DNA of 61,725 nt, filler included. It is 6 parts of 6 records of this genome, joined end to end, with 100 filler letters (N's around TTAATTAATTAA, not from the genome) between each part and the next. Parts side by side here need not be neighbours in the genome. Positions count along the whole stretch, not along the records: positions 25,297 to 38,707 come from DRR723986_8343; 5 more parts are not named here. One strand, given 5' to 3'. The stretch's first letter is position 1. Every line of letters begins with the position of its first letter. The position numbers were made by a program, and so were the translations under genes. A model generated the notes under the pieces. That model was not told the origin of the DNA. It saw only the letters and a program-made list of their open reading frames with translations, and ran no database searches. This document shows, in pieces, positions 13,793-53,979 of this stretch.

Positions 13793-13892
13793 NNNNNNNN
13801 NNNNNNNNNNNNNNNNNNNNNNNNNNNNNNNNNNNNTTAATTAATTAANNNNNNNNNNNNNNNNNNNNNNNNNNNNNNNNNNNNNNNNNNNN
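13793..13892. other. Artificial contig spacer
   Basis: 44 N + TTAATTAATTAA (stops in all six frames) + 44 N. Confidence 0.99.
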
Positions 13893-25196: not shown

Positions 25197-25296
25197 NNNN
25201 NNNNNNNNNNNNNNNNNNNNNNNNNNNNNNNNNNNNNNNNTTAATTAATTAANNNNNNNNNNNNNNNNNNNNNNNNNNNNNNNNNNNNNNNNNNNN
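25197..25296. other. Artificial contig spacer
   Basis: 44 N + TTAATTAATTAA + 44 N. Confidence 0.99.
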
Positions 25297-25413
25297 GGCG
25301 GTCTGCTTGGCGGAGACGGCGGCGGTCTGACCGACGGCTTGCTGGGCGACGAAGGCCTCGTAGGCGGTCTGCTCGGTGGCCTGACGAACACCGGTCCCGA
25401 AGACTTCGGCTGA
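25297..25413 (+). CDS. C-terminus of a Gly/Leu-rich repeat protein (5'-truncated, not in the ORF track)
   Basis: Translates to GGLLGGDGGGLTDGLLGDEGLVGGLLGGLTNTGPEDFG*. The repeats are clearer in protein than in DNA. Confidence 0.6.
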   Translation, partial: GGLLGGDGGGLTDGLLGDEGLVGGLLGGLTNTGPEDFG

Positions 25414-25540
25414 TCCACTCACGGACAAGGGACCCCTACCTGCCCCGAACCCCCCAGGCGGGGCAGGTCTCCGGACAGGGCGATACCATCCGCCCTGTCC
25501 GGGATTAACCAAGACGAACCAGAGATTAGAGGAGCCGGAC

Positions 25541-26533
25541 ATGAGAATTCTCGCAGTAGACGACAGTCCCATTTCCCGAGACCTGTTGCCCGTTTTGTTC
25601 TCCAGTTCCGGTTTTCCACCGCTTCACGTCGCCGAAAGCGGCAGCGCCGCCTTGGCGATCCTCGGCAAGAGCGAGCCGCAGTTCGACTGTCTCATCCTCG
25701 ATATCGAAATGCCCGGCATGGACGGGATCGAGCTGTGCTCCCGCATCCGGCAACTCGCCCGGTATCGCGAGACCCCGATCATCATGCTGACGGCGCGGGA
25801 CGATGCCGAGACCATCGAGACCGCCTTTGCCGCGGGCGCCAATGACTACATCCTGAAAAGCACGGCCGCCCGGGAACTGGTCGGGCGGGTGTACGTCGCC
25901 CAACGCATGTTGCAGCGCAACGAGTGCAAGATCCTTCCGCACGCCGAACCCGGCAAGACCGAAGGGATGCGCTTTGCACGCAGCGGCAAGCACAGCTTCG
26001 CGCTGGCCGACAGCCTGCTGATCGAGGGCGTGGACCGACTGGTCATGCCGTTCTCGCTTGGCAACTATCTGACCCAGTTGCCCACGTCGGCGCTGCCCGC
26101 CGCGCGGATCTTCGGTGTGCAGATCGAGGACCCGATCCGGCATTACCACGACAACACGACCCGGGATTTCGCGACCATCCTTGCCCGGGTGGCCAACGGC
26201 ATCCGCGCGACGGTCGACACCGAGCGGCTGCTGATGTCCTATCTCGGCGGCGGGGCGTTCTATTGCATCGCCCGCGACATCGCCGGAGAGCAATCCTCCG
26301 ATCTCGAGGCGGGCATCAACCGCTATCTCGACACCTGCGCCTCTGCCAGCGTGCTCGCGGCCCTTCAGTCGGTCAGCGTTTGCGTCGGCGCGCTGGTGGT
26401 GCCAAGCGCCCGGCGCGGGCAGCGGGTGCGTCTGTCATTCGATCGCGTGAAAGAGCGGATGGAGGCCCGTGCCCGGGCGGAAACGACATTCCACACGCAT
26501 GCAGCGGAACGGGAGAGAGCCACATGGCAGTGA
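25541..26533 (+). CDS. Response regulator (REC) with degenerate GGDEF-like C-terminal domain
   Basis: RILAVDD, LDIEMPGMDG, TA and K receiver motifs. YLGGGAF sits where GGDEF would be. GAGGAG RBS. Confidence 0.85.
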   Translation: MRILAVDDSPISRDLLPVLFSSSGFPPLHVAESGSAALAILGKSEPQFDCLILDIEMPGMDGIELCSRIRQLARYRETPIIMLTARDDAETIETAFAAGANDYILKSTAARELVGRVYVAQRMLQRNECKILPHAEPGKTEGMRFARSGKHSFALADSLLIEGVDRLVMPFSLGNYLTQLPTSALPAARIFGVQIEDPIRHYHDNTTRDFATILARVANGIRATVDTERLLMSYLGGGAFYCIARDIAGEQSSDLEAGINRYLDTCASASVLAALQSVSVCVGALVVPSARRGQRVRLSFDRVKERMEARARAETTFHTHAAERERATWQ

Positions 26534-26730
26534 TTTGCTTTGTCGTCAGCAGTTTCGTTTCCATGATCGTCGCGGTGCTTTGTTATGCCTTTACCAGTCT
26601 GGGCCTTCTGGATGCGGCGATGATCTACCTCGGCGGGGGCATCGTCCTTGGCACGGCGCTCAGCCTGATCGGCCACGGGTTGGTCGGCAGGATGCCCTAC
26701 CCGGGCGCCTTGGCCTCGGACCATTCGTAA
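26524..26730 (+). CDS. Small 68-aa two-TM membrane protein
   Basis: MAVICFVVSSFVSMIVAVLCYAF... with two hydrophobic helices. GGAGAG RBS. Overlaps the end of the response regulator. Confidence 0.6.
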   Translation: MAVICFVVSSFVSMIVAVLCYAFTSLGLLDAAMIYLGGGIVLGTALSLIGHGLVGRMPYPGALASDHS

Positions 26731-27406
26731 CCGTCCCGCCCTGACATAGGGCAGCTACGTATCGCGGACGGGCGAGGGCGGTCCCGGGGTACTGGCCGCT
26801 TCGGCGCCGGTCGGTCGGGAGCGGATCGGGGTGATGCCGGTATGGCGTCATCCTGTTTTGTGCGGTCGCGACCTCGCCCGCTGCGCCCGGAGGCGCGTGG
26901 TCGCCCGCCACCTTCCCCGTTTTCGACAGAGCGTTTGCACCGTGGTCGGCTTCGGTGACGGGGCGGCCCGTCTTCCGGTTGCCATGGTCGCGCGGTCCAT
27001 CGCGCAGGGGCGTCCGGCGTAACGCCCGGGATCACCGTGGACGCCTTTTGCAATTGTCTGGCGTGGTGCCCGGTCGGTCTTTCCGGCGATGCAATCCTGC
27101 ACCCCCTGACGGTCCTGCGGATCGCGCCGCGAGAGCCGTGAGCCTGCGGGCCGATGAGGCCACCGCGGATGCCGCCTGTTCGGCCCCGCCTAGGCACCGC
27201 GATTGCTTCAGTTTTCGAAAGACTCCCTTGCCGAAGGCAGGCATTCCTTCGATCTGCGCAGGGTATAGGTTTCGGCCATCGCCCGCGACGACCCTGATCC
27301 TGTCCAGCCCATTTGAAGCGGGACAGGGGGCGTCGCCTTACCATCACGGGGGCGCCGCTCTGGCCCGCGCCGCCGGACGGGCGCCCGAACCGAAAGGAAT
27401 TCGCCA

Positions 27407-28273
27407 ATGACCACCGTGTCTTACCGCACGCAAGCCGTCGGAGACGTGGACGTCTTCTACCGCGAAGCCGGACCTGCGACCGCGCCCGTCCTGTTGCTGC
27501 TGCACGGGTTTCCCTCTGCCAGCCACATGTTCCGCGACCTGATCCCGCAGCTTGCCGACCGCTACCGCGTCATCGCGCCGGATCTGCCGGGATTTGGACA
27601 GACCCGCGCGCCCGACCGGGGGAACTTCCCCTACGGCTTCGACACCCTTGCGACGGTGATCGACCATTTCACCGAGGCGCTCGGACTGGATCGCTTCGCG
27701 CTCTATGTCTTCGACTACGGCGCACCCGTGGGCCTGCGGATCGCCATGCAGCACCCCGAGCGCATCACCGCCATCATCTCGCAGAACGGCAATGCCTATA
27801 CCGAGGGCTTCAGCGACGGATGGGGCGATTGGGAGCGGTACTGGATCGACCCCACCGAGCAAAATCGCGAGGCCTGTCGCGCGTCCCTGTCGCCCGAGAC
27901 GATCCGCGACTGGCAATACGGGACCGGCGCCGATCCCACGCGGTTGTCCCCCGACGGCTATACGCTGGACATCGCGTACATGGCCCGGCCCGGCGCCGAG
28001 GACATCCAGCTCGACCTGATCCTGGACTATCGCGGGAACGTCGCGCTCTACCCGGATTTTCAGGCCTATTTCCGGAACCACCAGCCGCCGTTTCTGGCGG
28101 TCTGGGGCAGGCACGATCCGGCCTTCATTCCGCCGGGCGCCGAAGCCTACGCCCGGGACCTGCCCAAGGCCGAGATCCACCTGATCGACGCGGGCCATTT
28201 CGCGCTCGAGACCCATCACGAAGAGATTGCGGGCTATATCCGCGATTTCCTTGGCCGGGTCCTCGCGCGCTGA
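27407..28273 (+). CDS. Alpha/beta fold hydrolase (epoxide hydrolase/dehalogenase-like)
   Basis: LLHGFPS, APDLPGFG, FDYG nucleophile, AGHFALE. AAGGA RBS. Confidence 0.92.
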   Translation: MTTVSYRTQAVGDVDVFYREAGPATAPVLLLLHGFPSASHMFRDLIPQLADRYRVIAPDLPGFGQTRAPDRGNFPYGFDTLATVIDHFTEALGLDRFALYVFDYGAPVGLRIAMQHPERITAIISQNGNAYTEGFSDGWGDWERYWIDPTEQNREACRASLSPETIRDWQYGTGADPTRLSPDGYTLDIAYMARPGAEDIQLDLILDYRGNVALYPDFQAYFRNHQPPFLAVWGRHDPAFIPPGAEAYARDLPKAEIHLIDAGHFALETHHEEIAGYIRDFLGRVLAR

Positions 28274-28303
28274 ATTAAGGCCACTACGCCAATACCGATG
28301 CGG

Positions 28304-28333
28304 ACGGCCCTCGCTCTTGATTGCGAGGGCCGT
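28304..28333. terminator. Stem-loop between convergent genes
   Basis: ACGGCCCTCGC-N8-GCGAGGGCCGT, perfect 11-bp stem. Confidence 0.6.
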
Positions 28334-28504
28334 GACGGACTCTCAGGGCGCGAAAGACTGGTCGGGTGACGGGATATGCGCCCGCACACCGGAAGTCACC
28401 GTCTGATACCGTCAGGCCGCCCGTCTCGCTGAATCACATGACCCTCGCAAAAGCGCGCCGGGCGCTCGAGCCATTTGCGGGCGCCGCGCTCTCCGTCGGA
28501 AATG

Positions 28505-29227
28505 TCAGCGGCCAAGCAGCCTTTTCAGGCGGCTGTCCGCATGGGGATCGCAATAGTGGAAGATGGCGGTCGAGCGGATCCTTTCGACGTCGCAGGCCTC
28601 GTTGGTGTGGATCGTCCGGTAGCCCCAGAACAGATACGCATTGCCCGGCTTCAAATCCACGAACCGCATCCGTGCGCTGTTGTGACCATGGAGAATGCGA
28701 AGACGCCGTTGCGCGGATTTGTTGTCGAGCAGGAGCTTGTCGAGCAGGTTCCGCATGTAGCTCTTGCGCAGCCTGCGCGTGTTCGGCAGCAGCACCAACC
28801 GGCCCGTCCGTCCCTCGGTGGGGATCATGATCGGGAAGATGACGGTCAGGACGTATGTGTCGTAATGAAAGACCATCGAATGGTCTTGCCCCGATTCGCC
28901 CGACAGACAGCGCAGCGAGGGGATGAGGTCCGACTCCCCGGGCGCGGTGCCCAAGGCCGACGTGGTGATGTCGCGGCAGAGATTCCTGAAGCCGGGGCTG
29001 CTCGACAAAGCCGATACGAAAGTCTCGGAGAAATCCTTCAGATCGAAGACCGCGACGCTTTCATCGTTGTTCAGGTGGACGGCGCGTTTCACAGCCGCCC
29101 GCGCAATGGCGATGTCCGGGGCAGGGATGCAGTCGTCGATGACGCAGAGCCCCGTCTTTTCGAGGTCGGCCACGATGTTATCGACGTCCAGTCCAGCGGC
29201 AATTGGAAAAGAAAAGGGCTTGTTCAA
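28505..29227 (-). CDS. Hypothetical protein with predicted 2OG-Fe(II) oxygenase fold
   Basis: FHYDT (HxD), GRLVL, LKPGNAYLFWGYRTIH (distal His), RSTAIFHY. Start uncertain: TTG 29227 follows AGGAAGG, and the ORF is open to 29284. Confidence 0.6.
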   Translation of the reverse strand: MNKPFSFPIAAGLDVDNIVADLEKTGLCVIDDCIPAPDIAIARAAVKRAVHLNNDESVAVFDLKDFSETFVSALSSSPGFRNLCRDITTSALGTAPGESDLIPSLRCLSGESGQDHSMVFHYDTYVLTVIFPIMIPTEGRTGRLVLLPNTRRLRKSYMRNLLDKLLLDNKSAQRRLRILHGHNSARMRFVDLKPGNAYLFWGYRTIHTNEACDVERIRSTAIFHYCDPHADSRLKRLLGR

Positions 29228-29360
29228 TGGTTTCACCTTCCTGTCCAATTCGTAGCAGACTAGCCTTGTGCAGGTGGGCCGCACTAACGTGGATCAGGCC
29301 GATTGCAGTAAACCGGCGGCGCGCCATTCGGCCTTTGGACCTGCGGGAAACTCGGTGGTC

Positions 29361-30113
29361 TCACGTCGAGATCGGCAGGTCGACGTCATGCCGGGGGCCG
29401 GCGTAATCGAGATAGCCCATGTCGAAGTCGGCGATGCGCACCAGATGGTCGAAGCCGTCGAATGTGACCTTGCCGCTGCGAAACGTCAAAAGGCCCTCTT
29501 CGCGCAACTGGCGCAGGACGCGGTTGACATGAACGGCGCTGAGACCGAGGGCATCGGCCAGATGGTATTGCGACAGGGGGCAATCGAACCCCGCCTTGGT
29601 GGCCATCCCCACCATTTTCAGCCGCATATCCATTTCCAGAAAGAAATGAGCCGTCCGCTCCAACGCGTCGCGGCGGCCGAGGCTGACCAGCCGCTCTTCG
29701 ACGATGGCTTCGTCGGATGAAACGGCGCAGAGGATCGCCGTCGCAAGGCGCGGAAAGGCCGCGAATGTTCCAGCCAGATCCACGGCCCGCAACACCGATG
29801 CCCTGATTTCCGTGACGGGTTCGATGCAGTGGTTGGCGGTCTTCAACAGGACGTTGTGCAGTCCGAGAAAATCTCCGGGGATATGAAAATCGACGATCTG
29901 CCGTCCGCCATTGCGCAGCGCCTTGTAGGAGCAGACCCAACCCTTGGACAAAACGTAGGCCGGCGGCTGGCTTTGTCCCTCGTGGACGAGGTCGGTGCCC
30001 ATGGCGAAGCGTCGTTGATGTCGTTGAAACGCGGCGAGCACGGAGAGGTCGTCTTCGGATAGTTCCACGTAGGCGCTGAGTCTTCGAGCCAGGGGCGTGC
30101 TTTGGATTGTCAT
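29361..30113 (-). CDS. Crp/Fnr-family transcriptional regulator
   Basis: GRQIVDFHIPGDFLG cNMP-type domain and LADALGLSAVHVNRVL HTH. Confidence 0.92.
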   Translation of the reverse strand: MTIQSTPLARRLSAYVELSEDDLSVLAAFQRHQRRFAMGTDLVHEGQSQPPAYVLSKGWVCSYKALRNGGRQIVDFHIPGDFLGLHNVLLKTANHCIEPVTEIRASVLRAVDLAGTFAAFPRLATAILCAVSSDEAIVEERLVSLGRRDALERTAHFFLEMDMRLKMVGMATKAGFDCPLSQYHLADALGLSAVHVNRVLRQLREEGLLTFRSGKVTFDGFDHLVRIADFDMGYLDYAGPRHDVDLPIST

Positions 30114-30485
30114 TTTTTTTCAAAGCCTTTTTGCATCCGAAAAGGATGAGTATCATTAACCAATATTAACGCGTTTACCCGATAATTTCTCTTTTGCCGC
30201 TGATGCAGGTTAGTGCGCCCTGCTTTGACGCTGTCTGCGGCGCGGTTCGACGGGTGTCACAGTCGGGCGCTTTGGCGCGCGTTTCCCTTTGCGAAAGCGT
30301 CCTGCCGGGCTCCGTCGACCAGCGTGTCGGGCTTCGCCGCGTCCGCGCTGCAAACCGTCGAGGGGGCAAAACCAGGGGCTGCCGGCGAACGAACTGCGCA
30401 AGCCCTTGTGCCCGTGCAGGGGCTTCGGGGCGCGGAGATCAAGGATTTCGGTGCGTCCCCTGCGTCGGCTGTTGCCCGCCGCGCT

Positions 30486-31319
30486 TCAAACCGGCCGATC
30501 CGTCCGTTTCAGCACGAACCCCATGCTTTCGCTGCGTCCCAGCCATGGGTGGGACGGAATCACATGGCCCAGCTCCGGAATCGTCCAGCTGTCCAGCACC
30601 TCATATCCCAGTCGCGCCACTTCTGCGTCCCATTGCGGTCGGGCGCGCAAATGGTAGGCCACGCGCGCCCGACCGATCCGCTCGATGCAAAATCGCTCTG
30701 CCGCCGGCGAGAAAGCGATCTTGTTGATGACGATGAACCGGGGGCGGGCGGGAAGCGCGTCGACGAAATCCGGGAAGGGTGTGGGGAGGTATTGCAGCAG
30801 GCCGGACGCCAGCAGGAGGTCGGCAGCGGGGGCATTCTCCAGCCGGTCGACGAAGGTGATGGCGGCCGGGATCGCCCCCGCGGCCTGCCGGGCCTTGGCC
30901 GCGCGCACGATGCCGGGCAGATCGTAGACCGTCCAGCGCACGGGCGCGAGGTCGAGCAGGGGCGAAAAGGCCGTGAACTTCGTCCCCAGATGGCCGCCCG
31001 CATCGAGGACCGAGGGATGGTCGGGAAGCAACCGCGACAGCCAGAACAGGACGGGATAGTCCCAGGGCGCTCGCCGACGCATCAGGTCGAGCGACACGTC
31101 TGCCGTGTCCTCGTCGTCATAGCCCGGTGCCTCGATACGGGCGAGGGCGGCGTCGACCGCCATGCGCGTGGGATAAGCCCCCGTGAACCGGGCCGACCGG
31201 GACGTCCGGGCCAGAAGGCGCGCAAGCCCGGCCCGCGGCAGGGCGCCGAAGAGGGTGGCGGCTTGCCGAAGCCGGGCGCGCAGGGGCAGGGGGCGGGTAT
31301 CCGTGGTGCAGGCGGTCAT
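30486..31319 (-). CDS. Putative SAM-dependent methyltransferase (TIGR04325-like)
   Basis: WDYPVLFWL, VLDAGGHLG, WTVYDLP, ASGLLQYL motifs. ATGA overlap with the flippase stop codon. Confidence 0.8.
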   Translation of the reverse strand: MTACTTDTRPLPLRARLRQAATLFGALPRAGLARLLARTSRSARFTGAYPTRMAVDAALARIEAPGYDDEDTADVSLDLMRRRAPWDYPVLFWLSRLLPDHPSVLDAGGHLGTKFTAFSPLLDLAPVRWTVYDLPGIVRAAKARQAAGAIPAAITFVDRLENAPAADLLLASGLLQYLPTPFPDFVDALPARPRFIVINKIAFSPAAERFCIERIGRARVAYHLRARPQWDAEVARLGYEVLDSWTIPELGHVIPSHPWLGRSESMGFVLKRTDRPV

Positions 31320-32824
31320 TGCGATCCGGCCTCGACGATGGGCGCGGGCCGCATGATCGCCAGCATCTGCCGCCGGAAGTCCGGGTCGACGATGGAGATC
31401 GCCAGCGTGTAGATCGCAGCCCCCGCGAGACCGGCGGCGATTGCCTCGCCGACGGCACCAAGGGAGGCAACCGCCGCCGACCGTTCGACGGCCCAGACCG
31501 ACCCCGCGAAGGCCGCCAAGGGAAGGGCTGAGGGCCGCAGCATGATCCCCACGGGCTGCCACCGCACCCCGGCGTAGCGCCGGAAAAGCCAGAGCGTCGC
31601 CCCCAGGACCAGGGCCGCGACGGCGACCTGCGACCAAGCCAGCGCGTGGATGCCGTAAGGCGCGGTCGCGAGCGTCAGCGCCACCGACCCGGCGAAAATC
31701 GCGGTCATGAAGGCGGGCAGACGGCGCGCCTGCCCCGTGAGGGACATCAATGGCTCCGTCAACACGCCGAGGAACAGGAGCAGGCGGCCAAGGACGAGAA
31801 TGGAGAGCACCGCGCTCGCAGGGAGCCAGTTCGGCCCCAGCAGACCGGACACGATTTGATCGCTCATCAGGGCCAGCCATATGAGCAGGGGCGCGCCCAA
31901 GGCCACCAGAACCTTCAGGCTGCGCGCGATCTGCGCATTCAGACGCGCGGCCTGTCCCTCGGGCGGGCCGTCATCCCTGGCCTGTCTGAGTTGCGCCCAT
32001 GCCAGAAGTTGTCCCGGCACCACGATCAGTTCCGAAACGCCGCCCACCAATCGCTCCGCCGCGCGGAAGTACCCGACCGCGGCGGGACCCAGAACGCCGC
32101 CGATGATCAGGGTGACGAAGTGCAGCCGGGCATGGACGAGCATACGGCTCGAAAAGATCTGGACGGAGAAGGTCCAGAGCGCGCGCTGACCCTCGCGCGC
32201 CAGCCCGGGCAGCGGCAGGCGCCGGGTGGCGATCAGGCCAAGGATCAGGGCCGTGGTCTGGGCGGCCAGTCGCCCGTAGACGAGGGCAAAGACGCCCGCC
32301 CCGTCCAGAAGCGCCAGCACCGCGGCGACGAGGCCCGCAAGCTCTCCGGCGATTTCATTGATCGAGGCCGTCTTGATGCGCCCCAGAAAGATCAGCACGC
32401 CCTTCTGGGCCGAGGCCGCATTGGCCAGCGCGACCCACAGGGCGAACAGCACCATCAGGTTTACGATCTCTGGGGATACCCCGAACCCGCCCGCCACCAC
32501 GGCCCCGATCGCGCCGAGCATACCGCAGAGCGCCCCGAAGACGATGGCGACGAACAGCACCTGCAGCGGCACGGTGACGTCCCCCCTGCAGGACATGATG
32601 AACGGCGCCCACCCCGCTTCTGCCGCCCGCAACAGCAGGATGGCTGCGGCGGATCCCAGGGCGAACACGCCGAATTCCGCAGGCTCCAGCACACGCGCGG
32701 CCAGCACGAAGACGGCGAATTGCCCGATCTGCGAGATCACCCGCTCGGCCACGGAAAAGACGGCGTCGCCCGCGGCCTTGCGGGATCGGGGGGCAGGGGC
32801 GTGGGACAGGGGGCTCTGGCTCAT
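31316..32824 (-). CDS. Oligosaccharide flippase (Wzx/PST family)
   Basis: LAARVLEPAEFG, GPAAVGYFRAAERL, LLGPNW motifs and many TM helices. Confidence 0.9.
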   Translation of the reverse strand: MSQSPLSHAPAPRSRKAAGDAVFSVAERVISQIGQFAVFVLAARVLEPAEFGVFALGSAAAILLLRAAEAGWAPFIMSCRGDVTVPLQVLFVAIVFGALCGMLGAIGAVVAGGFGVSPEIVNLMVLFALWVALANAASAQKGVLIFLGRIKTASINEIAGELAGLVAAVLALLDGAGVFALVYGRLAAQTTALILGLIATRRLPLPGLAREGQRALWTFSVQIFSSRMLVHARLHFVTLIIGGVLGPAAVGYFRAAERLVGGVSELIVVPGQLLAWAQLRQARDDGPPEGQAARLNAQIARSLKVLVALGAPLLIWLALMSDQIVSGLLGPNWLPASAVLSILVLGRLLLFLGVLTEPLMSLTGQARRLPAFMTAIFAGSVALTLATAPYGIHALAWSQVAVAALVLGATLWLFRRYAGVRWQPVGIMLRPSALPLAAFAGSVWAVERSAAVASLGAVGEAIAAGLAGAAIYTLAISIVDPDFRRQMLAIMRPAPIVEAGSQ

Positions 32825-32836
32825 CTCGTGCGGCGA

Positions 32837-33571
32837 TCAGTACGCGCCATGGCCCGTCAACACGACATGCACCGTGCGCAACAGAATGCGGATATCGCCG
32901 AGCATCGACCGCTCCTCGACATAGCGGACGTCCAGCGCGACGCGTTCCGCATAGGTCGTGTTGTTGCGCCCGCTGACCTGCCACAGGCCGGTGATGCCCG
33001 GTCGTACGCCCATGTAAGAGGCGAAATCGGAGCCGTAATGCACCATCTCGTCGCGCACGATCGGGCGGGGGCCGACAAGGCTCATGTCGCCGCGCAGCAC
33101 GTTGATCAGTTGCGGCAGCTCGTCGAGGCTGGATTTGCGCAGAAGCCGCCCGATCGGCAACACCCGAGGATCGCGCTTCAGCTTTTGTGTCTGCGCCCAT
33201 TCGCGCCGCTGCGCGGGGTTGGACTTCAGACAGTCCGCCAGCACGCGGTCGGCATCGGTGTGCATGGTGCGGAACTTGAGGCAGTAGAACGGAACCGCCG
33301 CCCGACCCAACCGCCGATGGCCGAAAAACACCGGGCCGGGGTGAAAGAGGCCAAGCACGATGCAGATCAGCGCGAAGACCGGAAGGAAGAACAAAAGGAT
33401 GAGGCAGGTGCCGACGATGTCCATGACCCGCTTCGCGCGCGGTCCGTCGATCCAATGCGCAGGAGGCCGGCCGGCCACCGGCGTCGGGATCGCCGGTTGA
33501 TAGCCGAAATTGGCCTCGCTCTCCTTGCGGGCCGTGTCGAGGCCGACTGTTCCGATAAAGTTGTGTTGCAT
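32837..33571 (-). CDS. Priming polyprenyl glycosylphosphotransferase (ExoY/WbaP-like)
   Basis: KRVMDI, KFRTM, DPRV, LRKSSLDELPQL, MSLVGPRP, RPGITGLWQVSGRN motifs. Confidence 0.93.
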   Translation of the reverse strand: MQHNFIGTVGLDTARKESEANFGYQPAIPTPVAGRPPAHWIDGPRAKRVMDIVGTCLILLFFLPVFALICIVLGLFHPGPVFFGHRRLGRAAVPFYCLKFRTMHTDADRVLADCLKSNPAQRREWAQTQKLKRDPRVLPIGRLLRKSSLDELPQLINVLRGDMSLVGPRPIVRDEMVHYGSDFASYMGVRPGITGLWQVSGRNNTTYAERVALDVRYVEERSMLGDIRILLRTVHVVLTGHGAY

Positions 33572-33865
33572 CAAAATTCCCCCCCGGGATTGCAAAGATG
33601 TCCTGCACCGGCCTGTCTCCGCCGCCTTTTTGGCTGTTCGGCCAAGCCCGTGCGTTTGCTCTCAAATGATCCGATCTCTGGTCTTCACTCCATGGGTCCG
33701 GCGCGTCCACCCACGCACCGGAGGTTGCTGTTCAGGACGGAACCGGGGCTGCGGACGGGACGTGCCGCTTGCCCGACAGCCTCGGCTCCGGTAGGTCTGC
33801 GAGGAGGCCTTCGTGCGACCCGTGCGGAGGGCCGACCGCTTCGCAAAGAGGATACTCCAGCTTCG

Positions 33866-34075
33866 ATGGCCCGTTTGGAACCGACCTCGGATGATGACGC
33901 GGCCTCTCGGCAGGCCCCTGAGAAGGCCCCTTCGACCGCGGGACTGCGCCTGCGCGATCAAGGCCTGCATGACGACCGGACCCGCGGCGGAGTGACCGGG
34001 CGACGGCTGCGCATCGCGGCCATCGCCGTCTGCGCAATGGTGTGGATCGGCGTGCTTTACGTTGCATTGACCTGA
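33866..34075 (+). CDS. Small 69-aa protein with C-terminal membrane anchor
   Basis: AGAGGA upstream of ATG. Ends RRLRIAAIAVCAMVWIGVLYVALT. Overlaps the NRPS 3' end by 19 nt on the opposite strand. Confidence 0.45.
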   Translation: MARLEPTSDDDAASRQAPEKAPSTAGLRLRDQGLHDDRTRGGVTGRRLRIAAIAVCAMVWIGVLYVALT

Positions 34076-36888
34076 TCCTCAGCGGGGGCGTCGGCTTGAT
34101 AGGCGTCGAGAAGCGTCTCGATCTGCCGTGCGGCTTCTGCAATGCCCAGATTGCGACCCTGCGCAATGCTCAACTCCTTGACCGGATGCGTCAGCAACCG
34201 CCCCGTCACCTGACTGTCCCACCCCATGGTCGGGTCGAACATCGCCCCTTGCGGCGCTTCCGTGGTCACGAAATGCAGAACAGTGCCGTCGTAGGGCTCG
34301 GGATAATGCAGGTTTCGGGCGTCCCTGAGATGGTCGATGAACTCTTCCTGCTCGGCATCCAGATCTGTGGCGCGGACCCGCTCCATCAGGCGCAGGCGCA
34401 CGGCGAGACGCAGGATGCCGGTCCTTTTGATGACCCCGAAACTGCCCAGGAACGCGGCAAGGGAAATATCCCCCCGGCGCAGAAAGCGCGCTCGGATGCG
34501 GGCCGAGTGCAGCCGGTCCAGAAGCGACGACCAGCGCCCGCTTTGAATGCGGTCGGCATAGCGCGGCTCCCACACGTCCTTGAGGATCACGGCCACCACC
34601 TCTTCGCCCTGCGCCTTCAGCTGCCGCGCGACTTCGATGGCGAGGTTGCCATGCACGCAAACCCCGAAGAACGCGTAGGGCCCATGCGGCTGCGCGCTGC
34701 GCACCGCGTCCACGTAATCGGCTGCGATATCGTCGAACGGGCGAGGGGCAAGGGCGATGCCCCGGCTCTTGTCGTAGATGCGCACCGCGAGGGCCGGGCG
34801 TGGCTTGGCCATGGCCGCCGACAGGGCAAAGACCGTTTGTGCGTTGTTGATCGCGATCAGGGGAATGCCGCTGCCCCTGTCCTGCAGGACCATGACGCGC
34901 CAGTCGCCCGCGCCCGCCTCGACCCCCGGCGCGACGGCGGGGGGCGCGTCGCCGGACAAGTGCTGCGCCAGCGTGCGAAGGGTCGGGCTGTAGTAGGCCG
35001 TCGCTAGGCTGAGCCTGCGCCCGAATTCCTGCTCGATCCTCGCCAGCATGCGGACGGTCAGCAGGGAGTGGCCGCCCAGCTCGAAGAAGTTTGCGGTGGG
35101 CGGGATCGTGTCGATCCCCAGAAGGTCGCTCCAGATCACCGCCAGCCGGGTTTCGACATCGGTGTCGGCGCCGTCGGGTCCTGAGCCGCCTGAGCCGGGC
35201 ATGGGGGGGCGGCCTTGCAGGGCTGCGGCGAGGGGGAGCGCGGTCTTGCGGACCTGTCCGCCCGCGTCCCGTGGCAGCGCCCGCAGCACGCTGATGCCAT
35301 CCGGCCGGACATCCTCTGCCGCCATGTGGTTTGCGAGCGCCGCGGGCAGGCCTTCCAGCGGCAGGAGCGGGGCCTGCGGGTTCGCCGTCACGAAGGCATG
35401 GACACGACGACCCCCGTCCGGGCCGGCATAGGGCACGGCGGCGACCTCCCCGACCTGCGCGTGGGCCTTCAGCGCGGTTTCGATGCGGTTGGCCTGCTGC
35501 GTGTCGCGCTTCCGCGCGTCTTGCCCTGCCTGCGGTTGCGGCATCCGGTCGAGGGTCTGGTCCGGGTGGTCGAAGGCGAAGGCAAAGCTGGCCTGCCAAA
35601 GCGCCAGCATGTCGCGCGCGGTCTCGGCGCTGAACAGGTCCGAGTTGTACTCCAGCGTCATCCGCCAGCCGCTTTTCCGTCCGATCAGGACGAAGCTGAA
35701 GTCGTAGATCGCGCCGGGGGCGTGAGAGGGGGCGCTGGACAGTTCGAACCCGCCGTATTGCGCCGTTTCCATGAAGGCGTGCTGAAGGATGAAGTTGACG
35801 GAGATCAGCGGCGTGCGCGACGGATCGCGGCCCGGATTGACGATTTCCACGAGCTTGTTGAACGGCACATGCTGGCCGATCAGCGCATCCTGAACCACGC
35901 GGTGCGCGCGGGCGAGATGATCGTTCACGGTCTGCTTCGAGGGGGCCGGAAACCGCAACACGACGTTGTTGATGAAGACACCGATGAGAGGTTCGAGGTC
36001 CACCTCCGTCCGGCCTGCGACCTGGGTGCCGATCGTGACCTCGGGGGCGTCGGCGCAGCGGGAGAGCATCGCGCTCAGCACGCCCGCGCCGTAAGAGAAG
36101 GGCGACATCGCCCGCGCCTTTGCCTCTGCCGACAGCCGCTCTCCGAACGAGGCGGGCAGGTCGGCGTATACATTGGCGCAGGCCCCGCTGCGGTGCAGGG
36201 GGCGGGGGAAATCGGGCGACAGCTCGAAGTAGGGCGCGCCGGCCAGCCGGTCCCGCCACGGGGCGAGGTCATCGGCGAAGGCCGCGCTGCCGAAGTAGTC
36301 CTGCTGCCACAGGGCATAGTCGCCATATTGCAGCGGCAGCTCTGGCAGTTCCGGGGCAGTGCCTGCCTCATGCGCCGCCGCGGCCGCGCCGATCTCGCGG
36401 CCAAGGACGCCGATGGACCAGCCGTCGAAACAGATCTGATGCACGGTGATGGCAAGGATCGCGTGATCCTCGGCCAGGCGGATCAGCGTGGCGCGGATCA
36501 GGCCCGGGGATGCGAGATCGAAGGGCAGGGCGGCGTTTTCGGTGGCGATGTCCTCTACCCGCCGGGCGTGCGTGTCGGCGGGGGCCGTGCGGATGTCGAT
36601 CTCGGAGAGGTGGAAATCGGCGTGGTCCATGACCTCCTGCACGGGGCGGCCTGCCTCTTCGACGAAGCGCGTGCGCAGGATTTCATGGCGCGCCATGACG
36701 GTGCGGAAGGCCGCCTCGAACGCCGCGGCGCTGAAGCGCCCCGCGACCGCCCAGCGGATCGCCACGTTGAGGGCCGGTGTGCCCGGCGCCATCCGATCGA
36801 GGAACCAGCACCGCTCTTGCGTGGCGGAGCAGGGAAAGCGGTCCAGCGCGATCGGCGCGGGTTCCGGGCGTTTGATGCGCTCGTTCAT
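34057..36888 (-). CDS. Atypical NRPS: condensation - A-subdomain remnant - PCP - thioesterase-like
   Basis: QERCWFL, RHEILRT, HQICFDG, QYGDYALWQ, IGVFIN (C domain). FFELGGHSL (PCP). QPHGPYAFFGVCVHG (TE-like). Confidence 0.9.
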   Translation of the reverse strand: MNERIKRPEPAPIALDRFPCSATQERCWFLDRMAPGTPALNVAIRWAVAGRFSAAAFEAAFRTVMARHEILRTRFVEEAGRPVQEVMDHADFHLSEIDIRTAPADTHARRVEDIATENAALPFDLASPGLIRATLIRLAEDHAILAITVHQICFDGWSIGVLGREIGAAAAAHEAGTAPELPELPLQYGDYALWQQDYFGSAAFADDLAPWRDRLAGAPYFELSPDFPRPLHRSGACANVYADLPASFGERLSAEAKARAMSPFSYGAGVLSAMLSRCADAPEVTIGTQVAGRTEVDLEPLIGVFINNVVLRFPAPSKQTVNDHLARAHRVVQDALIGQHVPFNKLVEIVNPGRDPSRTPLISVNFILQHAFMETAQYGGFELSSAPSHAPGAIYDFSFVLIGRKSGWRMTLEYNSDLFSAETARDMLALWQASFAFAFDHPDQTLDRMPQPQAGQDARKRDTQQANRIETALKAHAQVGEVAAVPYAGPDGGRRVHAFVTANPQAPLLPLEGLPAALANHMAAEDVRPDGISVLRALPRDAGGQVRKTALPLAAALQGRPPMPGSGGSGPDGADTDVETRLAVIWSDLLGIDTIPPTANFFELGGHSLLTVRMLARIEQEFGRRLSLATAYYSPTLRTLAQHLSGDAPPAVAPGVEAGAGDWRVMVLQDRGSGIPLIAINNAQTVFALSAAMAKPRPALAVRIYDKSRGIALAPRPFDDIAADYVDAVRSAQPHGPYAFFGVCVHGNLAIEVARQLKAQGEEVVAVILKDVWEPRYADRIQSGRWSSLLDRLHSARIRARFLRRGDISLAAFLGSFGVIKRTGILRLAVRLRLMERVRATDLDAEQEEFIDHLRDARNLHYPEPYDGTVLHFVTTEAPQGAMFDPTMGWDSQVTGRLLTHPVKELSIAQGRNLGIAEAARQIETLLDAYQADAPAEDQVNAT

Positions 36889-38707
36889 GACACCACCGCC
36901 GTCTTGCGCCGCGCGCCTCTGCGGAAATCCTTCAGCGAGGGTGCCTTGGCCGTATCCGCCCGCGCCTCGGTGAAGGCCGCGACCGCCTGGATGGTGGGGT
37001 ATTGCATCAGATGCCGCGCCTCGATGCCGGTGTTGCGATCCAGCGTCCGGGCGGCGATGCGGAAGATGCTGAGGGAATCCGCGCCAAGCGCGAAGAGGTC
37101 GTCGGTGATGCCGATGGCGTCGATCCCCAGCACGTCCTGCCAGATCTCGGCCAGCGTGCGTTCCAGATCGGTCTTCGGCGCAACGATCTCGCGCAGGGTG
37201 GCGTCGGGGCGCATCGGCTCCAGATCGGGCAACGCGCGCCGGTCGAGCTTGCCATTGGCCGTCTCTGGAAGCGCGGAGAGGCGATGATAGCGCGTCGGCA
37301 CCATGTAGCCGGGGAGTTGCCCCTGCAGCGCCTGCGCGATGTCGGCAGGCTCTGCCGCGCCGACGTAGAACCCCGCGAGGAATGGCCCGGCAGGCCCCTC
37401 GCGCAGATCCACCGCGGCGGCGGTGACGTTTGACAGGCCGCGCATCGCGGCCTCGATCTCGCCGAGCTCGATGCGGAAGCCGCGCAGCTTGACCTGCCCG
37501 TCGCGGCGGCCCAGCACCACGATCCGGCCATCGGCCCCGCGCCGCGCCAGATCGCCCGTGCGGTACAGACGTGTGGGGCCGGAGCCCGGAATGTCGACCG
37601 TGCGAAACGCGGCCTGCGTCAGATCGGGGCGACCGAGATAGCCCGAGGCAAGCCCCGCCCCGCCGATGTTCAGCTCTCCGGTCACGCCAAGGGGCACGAG
37701 CCGATCGTCTTCGTCAAGCACATGCATCACGGTGTTGTCGAGGGGTGTGCCGATGTCGATGATGCCGTCCGTGACCCGCCCGCAGGACGACCAGATGGTC
37801 GTTTCGGTCGGGCCGTACATGTTCCAGACCTCACCGCCGCCGGCGACGAGCCGATCCGCCAGATCGCGGGGCAGAGCCTCGCCCCCGACCAGCGCCTTGA
37901 GGGTCGGGCCGGGGATCAATCCCGCCTCCAGCAGCATCTGCCACAGCGTCGGGGTGGCTTGCAGGACGGTGATGTCGCCCTTGGCCAGCCGCTCGACGAG
38001 GGGGAAGGCGGCCTGCACATCGGCCTCGGAGGCGATCACGGTCTTGCCGCCCGTCGTGAGGGGCAGGAACAGTTCCAGCGCCGCGATGTCGAAGGCGACG
38101 GTCGTGACGGAGAGGATCGCGTCGCTTGCCGTGAAGCCGGGGCTGCGCGCCATGGACACCATGAAGTTACCGAGGGCCGAGTGCGGCACGTCCACGCCCT
38201 TTGGCGCGCCGGTAGAGCCGGAGGTGAAGATGGCATAGGCGGGTGCGTCGTTCGGCGTGGGGGCCGGGGCGACCGGGCCATCGCGGCGCGCGGCGGCGTC
38301 GATCAGCGCAAGGTCCAGCCCCTCGGCAATCCCGGGGCGGGGGCCGGAGTGGACCAGGGCGGATACGCCCGACGCCTCCAGAACCGCGCGCAAGCGGGCC
38401 GGGGGGTGGCTTGGGTCCAGCGGGACGTAGGCATGGCCCGCCTTCATCACCGCCAGAAGGGCGATGACGAGATCGGCGGACCGGTCGAGCATGACGGCGA
38501 CGCGGGCGCCCGGCTCGGGCAATTGGTGCGCGATCTCGGCGGCAAGGCCGTCGCTCTCGGCGCCGATCTGCGCATAGCTGTGCGCGCCGCGGGCGTCCTC
38601 TATGGCCGTCGCTTCGGGCGTGGCGGCGATCTGCCGGGCGATCATCTGGTCCAGCCGCTCCTGTGGCAGCGGCTTGTCCGTGGCGTTGCCGAGGGCGGCG
38701 AGCGCCG
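36885..38707 (-). CDS. NRPS adenylation-PCP module, predicted Gly-specific (5'-truncated)
   Basis: FTSGSTGAPKG, NMYGPTETTIW, YRTGD, QVKLRGFRIELGEIE, NGKLDR, LGADSL motifs. Specificity code read by eye as DILQLGMIWK. Confidence 0.92.
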
Positions 38708-38807
38708 NNNNNNNNNNNNNNNNNNNNNNNNNNNNNNNNNNNNNNNNNNNNTTAATTAATTAANNNNNNNNNNNNNNNNNNNNNNNNNNNNNNNNNNNNN
38801 NNNNNNN
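38708..38807. other. Artificial contig spacer
   Basis: 44 N + TTAATTAATTAA + 44 N. Confidence 0.99.
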
Positions 38808-47581: not shown

Positions 47582-47681
47582 NNNNNNNNNNNNNNNNNNN
47601 NNNNNNNNNNNNNNNNNNNNNNNNNTTAATTAATTAANNNNNNNNNNNNNNNNNNNNNNNNNNNNNNNNNNNNNNNNNNNN
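47582..47681. other. Artificial contig spacer
   Basis: 44 N + TTAATTAATTAA + 44 N. Confidence 0.99.
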
Positions 47682-53879: not shown

Positions 53880-53979
53880 NNNNNNNNNNNNNNNNNNNNN
53901 NNNNNNNNNNNNNNNNNNNNNNNTTAATTAATTAANNNNNNNNNNNNNNNNNNNNNNNNNNNNNNNNNNNNNNNNNNNN
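53880..53979. other. Artificial contig spacer
   Basis: 44 N + TTAATTAATTAA + 44 N. Confidence 0.99.

Follow-up and report, generated by a model that had tools for sequence, protein, structure and literature searches.

The locus described here raises the question of why a glycine-activating nonribosomal peptide synthetase (NRPS) lies among the genes of a polysaccharide pathway, and whether its product ends up on the glycan. It is located in a 61.7-kb stretch of DNA (the window, the numbering of which is used throughout) that comprises six contigs joined by spacers, and every gene of the finding is carried by one contig of 13,411 bp (25297..38707) with a GC content of 66.8%, as compared to 55-59% for the adjoining contigs. 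An initial annotation had listed seven minus-strand genes, namely an NRPS gene with an adenylation (A) and a peptidyl carrier (PCP) domain, a coupled gene with condensation (C), PCP and thioesterase (TE)-like domains, and genes for a priming transferase, a Wzx flippase, a coupled methyltransferase, a Crp/Fnr regulator and a 2-oxoglutarate (2OG)-Fe(II)-like oxygenase, and all seven are present on this single contig (Table 1). Judged from sequence comparisons, the synthetase line appears to belong integrally to a polysaccharide cluster that is probably of the Wzx/Wzy type. We propose, with what we regard as about an even chance of being right, that the line makes a short amine-rich pseudo-peptide which is loaded onto a lipid-linked repeat unit.

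Results

Linkage of the synthetase to polysaccharide genes

Stretches of 19-43 kb around the synthetase were fetched for 14 related loci, and a homologue was counted where tblastn returned an E-value of at most 1e-8 with a high-scoring segment pair spanning at least half of the query. Homologues of both the priming transferase and Wzx were present in 11 of the 14 loci, at no more than around 20 kb from the synthetase, and Wzc-like proteins were likewise present in 11, while a GT4 glycosyltransferase was present in 13, a phosphopantetheinyl transferase (PPTase) in 12, the TIGR04325 methyltransferase in nine, a pyruvyl transferase homologue in seven and a Wza-type export protein in five, with Wza-type proteins annotated in additional loci. 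The genes that surround the synthetase in these loci encode the priming transferase and Wzx, three glycosyltransferases (one GT2 and two GT4), a candidate for Wzy, a co-polymerase of the Wzc-like tyrosine autokinase kind and a Wza-like protein, often joined by a pyruvyl transferase and the TIGR04325 methyltransferase as well as by a CocE/NonD hydrolase and a Crp/Fnr regulator. The only exporters to recur in the annotated loci are Wzx, Wzc and Wza.

The glycan genes flank the synthetase on both sides and are interleaved with the PPTase gene, in Rhodobacterales and Rhizobiaceae alike. The block of transferase, flippase and methyltransferase genes is found downstream of the TE gene in Loktanella as in the window, upstream of the starter gene in Pseudooceanicola, Jannaschia and genome G245, and several genes away in Rhizobium, so that the pairing of synthetase and glycan genes is kept across two orders despite the changed gene order. 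The relatives are often borne on plasmids or chromids, with 19 records in PLSDB. A search of genome contigs for related loci, for which generic NRPS motifs were used, kept 80 loci, comprising a single orthologue (in Pseudooceanicola) and 79 ordinary NRPS genes.

The co-occurrence was also assessed in a single sample of 401 genomes, drawn evenly from the family Rhodobacteraceae. The C-PCP-TE gene was found in seven of these genomes (E≤1e-100) and the Wzx of the window in eight (E≤1e-56), the latter being the same seven together with G386, a fragmented 2.8-Mb draft that has pieces of C-PCP-TE on small contigs; six further matches of Wzx reached only weak E-values (1e-21 to 1e-28). Orthologues of A-PCP were present in nine genomes (E≤1e-160), the ninth of which, G193, holds a C-PCP-TE match at 1.1e-99, narrowly missing the threshold set for that gene, and a weak Wzx-like gene approximately 21 kb away. 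In a class-level sample, eight of 401 genomes gave a match at E≤1e-60, one of them (G001) the sole orthologue and the other seven matching by the C domain alone within large NRPS open reading frames (ORFs). The initial annotation had named as a check whether wzx and the priming transferase co-occur with the synthetase where the locus is full-length, and this was borne out both by 11 of the 14 loci and by the match between Wzx and synthetase in the 401 genomes. This near-exact co-occurrence supports the prediction that the synthetase and the glycan pathway are functionally coupled.

The glycine adenylation domain and the hybrid assembly line

The A-PCP gene matched PF00501 (E 2.3e-70), TIGR01733 (385.7 bits as compared to a cutoff of 317.4) and PF00550. 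It aligns to only residues 2016-2621 of a 2623-residue hybrid protein of Loktanella, which indicates that the gene of the window is 5′-truncated, and its frame is open to the contig end (38705), in agreement with the earlier statement that the upstream part is cut off. The lost 5′ part amounts to approximately 2000 codons (around 6 kb), plus anything beyond, and the missing remainder of the cluster was not found on the other contigs of the window. The ten-residue specificity code of the A domain reads DILQLGMIWK and is kept in 12 of 12 orthologues, either identically or in a form altered at one or two positions (DILQ[LFMW]G[MLV][IV]WK). The same code is given for Gly-activating domains in the available text of a published study (PMC12283262), and the domain is thereby supported as a predicted Gly-type NRPS adenylation domain, as had been called before from a code that was correctly read.

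Complete relatives of the line were found in Pseudooceanicola and five further genomes, on plasmids of Loktanella salsilacus, Rhodobacter sp. CZR27 and Jannaschia sp. M317, and on chromids of Rhizobium, Sinorhizobium and Ensifer. The full line consists of an adenylating starter enzyme, separate or fused, with a carrier, followed by ketosynthase (KS), acyltransferase (AT), carrier, class-III aminotransferase, C, A(Gly) and carrier domains, and then by the C-PCP-TE gene and a PPTase; three carrier domains precede the C-PCP-TE gene in these relatives. By this comparison, what survives in the window is the closing one and a half modules of a hybrid line of polyketide synthase (PKS) and NRPS that is made up of three proteins.

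The starter enzyme passed the TIGR01733 cutoff (325.9 bits as compared to 317.4) and keeps Asp235, which binds the alpha-amino group, in nine of nine loci and Lys517 in eight of nine, while its pocket codes vary between species. For this reason the predicted chain starts from an amino acid and not from a fatty acyl group, and would comprise an amino acid extended by two carbons, the keto group of which is converted to an amine, followed by Gly. A fatty acyl-AMP ligase as starter, which would lead to a beta-amino-fatty-acyl-Gly lipopeptide, was considered and is ruled out by the same TIGR01733 match and by Asp235 in all nine loci. The "acyl unit" of the initial annotation can thus be retained as an acyl unit containing Gly, though it would not be a fatty acyl unit, given that it consists of an adenylated amino acid plus two carbons, transaminated and then joined to Gly.

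Domain organisation and unusual residues of the C-PCP-TE protein

The ATG of the C-PCP-TE gene overlaps the stop codon of the upstream A-PCP gene (ATGA), and this overlap, together with the domains that could be read and the Foldseek matches of the TE domain, upholds the coupled C-PCP-TE-like gene of the earlier description. The condensation domain matched PF00668 (E 1.8e-74), its closest relatives of solved structure being Txo2, Txo1 and TycC. The family to which the protein belongs is well populated, with members of approximately 830-960 residues that come mostly from Rhodobacterales and also from Rhizobiaceae, Methylocapsa and Hyphomonadaceae. No PF00501 match or adenylation core was detected in the 120 near-length relatives listed; a remnant of the A subdomain of approximately 75 residues lies between the C and carrier domains in the forms of around 920 residues, including that of the window, and is lacking in those of around 830 residues. 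The carrier Ser of PCP2 is invariant.

Two relatives of 1390 residues (P0029 and P0064) were considered as possible carriers of an intact A domain, which was excluded as the extra length is an N-terminal extension ahead of the C domain, and they are therefore uninformative as to the cargo of PCP2. A search for longer relatives brought up nothing but generic multimodular NRPSs (identity 28-39%, mostly over 43-57% of the query), which are uninformative on fused forms with an intact A domain.

The terminal domain has a thioesterase fold, as indicated by PF00975 and by Foldseek matches to NRPS and PKS thioesterases (E 8e-13), and its AlphaFold model (pLDDT 92.7) has among its best structural matches a bifunctional TE (7crn), AB3403, Pks13 and EntF. 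A Cys occupies the nucleophile position in all 32 aligned members, and likewise in seven further orthologues. The canonical C-terminal His is absent from 30 of the 32, and the same 30 have a His two residues past the Cys (G-x-C-[VW]-H-G), while the two outliers and the short forms read G-L-C-V-[ADNS]-G and retain the canonical G-[GW]-H. This clean covariation of the two His positions suggests that the catalytic His may have moved in the clade of the window. With respect to type I thioesterases, the domain has the fold and lacks the canonical Ser-His-Asp triad with GxSxG, and it is predicted to work as a thioesterase or acyl-transfer domain outside the canonical triad class.

In the loci of the short form (around 830 residues) a protein of approximately 530 residues with a GINT1_N domain is encoded directly 3′ of C-PCP-TE, examples being L096:2477-4063 (in genome G331) and the genes annotated as "hypothetical protein" that come after C-PCP-TE in loci L112 and L116. 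Homologues of the GINT1_N protein occur in seven of the 14 loci and, with the exception of Ensifer and S. fredii (C-PCP-TE matched at 94% coverage), not together with the long form of the window type.

The glycan genes of the window

The priming transferase, with 205.8 bits for PF02397 as compared to a cutoff of 27 and one hydrophobic segment, is a member of the small monotopic polyprenyl-phosphate sugar-1-phosphate transferases. The TIGR03022 match was confined to its C-terminal 200 positions (301.6 bits, cutoff 403), and the protein corresponds to the C-terminal catalytic part of WbaP-type models; the Loktanella homologue is 65% identical, and the start of the gene may be as late as 33424. 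Wzx is a member of the MOP family, with 90.8 bits for PF13440 (cutoff 23), 32.3 bits for PF01943 (cutoff 28.2) and around 12 hydrophobic segments. The ATG of the TIGR04325 methyltransferase gene overlaps the wzx stop codon (ATGA), in keeping with the translational coupling noted previously; the family cutoff is passed, and the gene lies directly 3′ of the flippase gene also in Loktanella, Jannaschia and Rhizobium CCGE532.

Of the Wzx/Wzy pathway, the window has no parts other than the priming transferase and Wzx, and the related loci supply Wzc-like (Wzz, GNVR and AAA_31 domains) and Wza-like (Poly_export and SLBB domains) proteins. The Wzy candidate of these loci is a membrane protein of 450-476 residues with 10-13 hydrophobic segments and no family match.

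The cluster edge and the remainder of the contig

The Crp/Fnr-family regulator has a homologue in six of the 14 related loci. A scan of the whole window for FNR boxes gave 31 matches with at most two mismatches where 16 were expected, none of them in the two intergenic gaps of the cluster. The 259-residue protein beside it gave no Pfam or NCBIfam match at threshold (Pfam HalD, E 0.013, under the cutoff), and a sequence search of the PDB gave nothing meaningful. Its residues H140, D142, H226 and R237, which include an HxD triad of the hydroxylase type, are invariant in 27 aligned sequences, and its AlphaFold model (pLDDT 88.8) was matched best by Foldseek to 7u6h, 9oet and 7jsd, with HalD, a BesD homologue, at E 4e-10; the top matches (HalD, "Hydrox" and a BesD-homologue hydroxylase) are Fe(II)/2OG amino-acid hydroxylases or halogenases. 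The invariant motif and the structural matches place the protein among the Fe(II)/2OG oxygenases, so that the 2OG-Fe(II)-like label given to it earlier holds. No oxygenase homologue was found in the 14 related loci. Two proteins, P0125 (59% identical to the oxygenase) and P0006 (68% identical to C-PCP-TE), are both recorded with 15,413 bases as the length of the longest contig, and may share one contig in a close relative.

On the other side of the oxygenase gene the contig carries two plus-strand genes. The response regulator, which has a receiver domain and an unassigned C-terminal part of 200 residues, has a 33% identical homologue near the Loktanella/G006 cluster, and a response regulator adjoins the Crp/Fnr gene in two Rhizobium loci. 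The alpha/beta-fold hydrolase, located between the regulator genes and the cluster, has no homologue in the related loci. The approximately 870 bases at 26534..27406 (GC 67%) contain no ORF that passes a codon-position GC test. An Rfam search of the contig (E≤0.1) gave zero matches, and a promoter and terminator scan gave no signal exceeding that of shuffled sequences. The spacers of the window, at 13793..13892, 25197..25296, 38708..38807, 47582..47681 and 53880..53979, each consist of 44 N, 12 bases without G or C, and 44 N. The GC contents of the six contigs spread from 55% to 68%, on account of which the assembly may mix replicons or organisms.

Table 1. Features of the 13.4-kb contig, numbered along the whole window
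Feature	Position	Strand	Basis
A-PCP, 3′ part of hybrid PKS-NRPS gene	36885..38705	-	PF00501, TIGR01733, PF00550
Carrier domain PCP1 of A-PCP	~36972..37157	-	
C-(A-subdomain remnant)-PCP-TE, 943 aa	34057..36888	-	PF00668, PF13193 (below cutoff), PF00550, PF00975
Condensation domain	~35539..36840	-	motif HQICFDG
Remnant of adenylation C-terminal subdomain	~35263..35484	-	PF13193 below cutoff
Carrier domain PCP2	~34957..35148	-	GGHSL
Thioesterase-like domain	~34084..34896	-	Cys744 at nucleophile position, elbow GVCVHG
Cys744	34657..34659	-	
His746	34651..34653	-	
Priming transferase, small monotopic polyprenyl-phosphate sugar-1-phosphate transferase	32837..33595	-	PF02397 E 5e-61
Wzx flippase, MOP family	31316..32824	-	PF13440, PF01943
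TIGR04325 methyltransferase	30486..31319	-	151.4 bits, cutoff 80
Crp/Fnr-family regulator, cluster edge	29361..30113	-	PF13545, PF00027, PF00325
Fe(II)/2OG oxygenase, BesD/HalD-like, 259 aa	28505..29284	-	HxD...H...R motif, AlphaFold and Foldseek
Alpha/beta-fold hydrolase, between regulator genes and cluster	27407..28273	+	haloalkane-dehalogenase-like matches, below cutoff
Response regulator, receiver domain and unassigned 200-residue C-terminal part	25541..26533	+	

Discussion

A pathway that would account jointly for the synthetase and the glycan genes can be outlined as follows. A starter amino acid would be extended by one malonyl unit and the resulting beta-keto group transaminated to yield a 3,4-diamino acyl unit, which would then be condensed with Gly, while the final carrier PCP2, lacking an A domain, would receive its residue in trans, in the simplest case a second Gly. 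The TE-like domain with its Cys nucleophile would attach the chain, through a hydroxyl or an amino group, to a sugar residue of an undecaprenyl-diphosphate-linked repeat unit at the cytoplasmic face, this repeat unit being assembled by the priming transferase and the GT2 and GT4 enzymes and possibly methylated and pyruvylated. Wzx would subsequently flip the unit and the Wzy-like protein would polymerise it, after which export through Wzc and Wza would yield a peptide-carrying exopolysaccharide or capsule. Transfer to a lipid-linked sugar makes the simplest joint pathway, as Wzx, Wzc and Wza are the sole recurring export machinery and the product would come off its carrier in the form of an activated acyl group. 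The TE domain of Pks13 passes an acyl chain to trehalose, and transfer from a TE to a sugar is thus precedented. The glycine-containing unit loaded onto a glycan, as first suggested for this locus, agrees with the coupling seen in the co-occurrence data and with the Gly code; its covalent step is one that we infer. In its more specific form the proposal describes a new class of glycoconjugate, namely a Wzx/Wzy polymer bearing an amine-rich pseudo-peptide of NRPS/PKS origin (a 3,4-diamino acyl unit with Gly or Gly-Gly) that would be attached by a TE-like domain with rewired Cys and His, would be zwitterionic where a pyruvyl ketal is present, and would be encoded on plasmids or chromids of marine Rhodobacterales and rhizobia; we advance this class tentatively, at somewhat below an even chance.

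Several points weigh against loading of the pseudo-peptide onto a repeat unit. A covalent bond cannot be read from gene linkage alone, none of the genes was recognised as a dedicated peptide-to-sugar transferase, and a terminal TE is equally expected of a pathway that releases a free peptide. The starter, the PKS part and most of the glycan genes are absent from the window itself, and the membrane protein of around 450 residues in the related loci is a Wzy candidate by its hydropathy. PCP2 has no A domain of its own and would have to be loaded in trans. The second His of the HHxxxDG motif is replaced by Gln in the C domain of the window (HQ in 19 of 31 relatives, HH in 12), so that the last condensation step may be non-canonical. 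Three of the 14 related loci lack the priming transferase or Wzx at the thresholds used: the locus of G127 lies on a contig of only 15.8 kb and a Wzx orthologue is present on another contig of that genome, the stretch from the Rhodobacter CZR27 plasmid, which lacks both, ends at the start of the record and an annotated flippase is located 12 kb away, and in Rhizobium SL42 minCDE occupies the place of the two genes. Furthermore, the loci are partly non-independent, as G006 and the Loktanella plasmid almost duplicate each other and the 11 Rhizobium records are closely related.

The same genes could be read in other ways. The line might make a small diffusible glycopeptide, composed of the pseudo-peptide and one sugar or repeat unit, with the Wzx route serving for its glycosylation and export only and no polymer being decorated. 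A comparable model has been proposed, according to the available text, for carenaemin of Collimonas arenae (PMC8313283), and pyruvyl transferase homologues are found in seven of the 14 related loci as they are in the carenaemin cluster, whereas the Wzc-like co-polymerases (11 of 14) and Wza-type proteins (five of 14) are parts of a polymer-export machinery that would be superfluous for a small molecule; we consider this reading unlikely. Alternatively, the peptide could be released free, as a signal, an antibiotic or a metal binder, with the polysaccharide genes placed nearby through a common lifestyle or common regulators and with no covalent link. Such a product would suit a line that ends in a fold matching ordinary NRPS and PKS thioesterases, a Crp/Fnr regulator (in some loci a response regulator) at the cluster edge, and clusters that are often located on plasmids or chromids, where co-selected traits gather. 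However, the near-exact match of Wzx and synthetase across 401 genomes, the interleaving of the two gene sets through rearrangements in two orders, and the fact that no separate exporter recurs all speak for a closer tie, and free release likewise seems to us improbable.

The simplest objection is that two unrelated islands have come to lie side by side by chance on a mobile replicon, for which the GC content of the contig, above that of its neighbours in the window, and the plasmid-borne relatives could be cited. This is contradicted by the pairing in 11 of the 14 loci and by the eight Wzx genomes of 401 being the holders of the synthetase, and the pairing occurs in both Rhodobacterales and Rhizobiaceae; chance adjacency is accordingly regarded as very improbable indeed.

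If loading of the pseudo-peptide onto the repeat unit is correct, it would constitute a new way of decorating Wzx/Wzy polymers by a carrier-protein assembly line, and a new fate of an NRPS product, in that the chain would be offloaded onto a lipid-linked sugar in place of being released. Surface polysaccharides influence the attachment of roseobacters to algae and particles and the dealings of rhizobia with their hosts, and a Cys thioesterase with a displaced His poses a defined enzymological question. The idea is directly testable, as the cluster is conserved, often plasmid-borne and present in cultured strains.

Comparison with known systems

The finding is a variant of two themes, the carrier-protein-dependent decoration of envelope polymers and the hybrid PKS-NRPS with an in-line aminotransferase, and it is not categorically new, since we infer the covalent link. 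No product assigned to the present cluster was found in the literature searched, which covered few subscription journals. Decoration of the first kind is performed by DltABCD, which places D-Ala on teichoic acids, and by AlmEFG, which places Gly or di-Gly on the lipid A of Vibrio cholerae. In both, as is proposed here, an adenylating enzyme charges a carrier with a small amino acid and the acyl group is passed to a surface glycoconjugate to which amino groups are thereby added, and DltA models are among the profile matches of the A domain of the window. The Dlt and Alm systems employ a stand-alone ligase and carrier, however, whereas the ligase and carrier here are domains of a multimodular PKS-NRPS with C domains and a TE, and the present line is thus not a member of either. 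No DltB/DltD- or AlmG-like transferase was seen among the annotated genes of five related loci, no profile search having been aimed at them.

The second theme is known from iturin and mycosubtilin, the loading part of which runs from acyl-ACP through a KS and an aminotransferase to C-A-PCP. These lines share with the present one the KS extension and the in-line class-III aminotransferase, which yield a beta-amino acyl unit to which a C domain joins the next amino acid, but they use a fatty acyl starter, while here the starter is an adenylated amino acid, the AT acts in cis, the chain has two to three residues and the genes lie in a polysaccharide cluster. The last module of yersiniabactin is an A-less terminal NRPS module that is loaded in trans, and resembles the end of the present line in having a terminal C/Cy-PCP-TE without its own A domain and an upstream A domain able to load it; it differs in that the forms of around 920 residues here retain an inactive remnant of the A C-terminal subdomain, and loading in trans is here a prediction.

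Loci of NRPS, PKS and glycan genes in the Roseobacter group had been named in the initial annotation as similar, and a conserved cluster of this kind, that of Martens et al. 2007, is described in the available text of later reports (PMC4337385, PMC5014874) as containing NRPS, PKS, glycosyltransferase and PPTase genes and as having an unknown product. It occurs in the same bacterial group and has the same types of genes, yet it is far more common, in 28 of 57 genomes according to those reports as compared to seven to nine of 401 for the present synthetase. Around 100 of the 401 genomes carry another NRPS-like ORF of approximately 1500 residues that matches only residues 233-590 of A-PCP at approximately 42% identity, and one genome (G384) holds both this ORF (G384:C2:260506-261573) and the present synthetase. 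The ORF probably belongs to the common Roseobacter cluster, which is itself probably a different locus from the present one.

The closest parallel by description is carenaemin, for which the available text reports a PKS-NRPS cluster that begins with an N-terminal KS/AT-aminotransferase and includes pyruvyl transferase and PPTase genes, a need for a separate Wzy-dependent locus, and a diffusible metabolite, and for which its authors suggest attachment of the peptide to a sugar unit on a lipid carrier, followed by flipping (PMC8313283). The likeness of the carenaemin genes (cpl of strain Cal35) to the present cluster, drawn from description and not from sequence, lies in the KS/AT and aminotransferase front end and in the pyruvyl transferase and PPTase within the cluster. 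Carenaemin is, on the same account, a small diffusible antifungal of a betaproteobacterium, with a peptide of Gln, Ser and Leu and with two loci far apart on the chromosome, whereas the present line is predicted to join one variable starter to Gly and is encoded in a single cluster in which synthetase and polysaccharide genes are interleaved.

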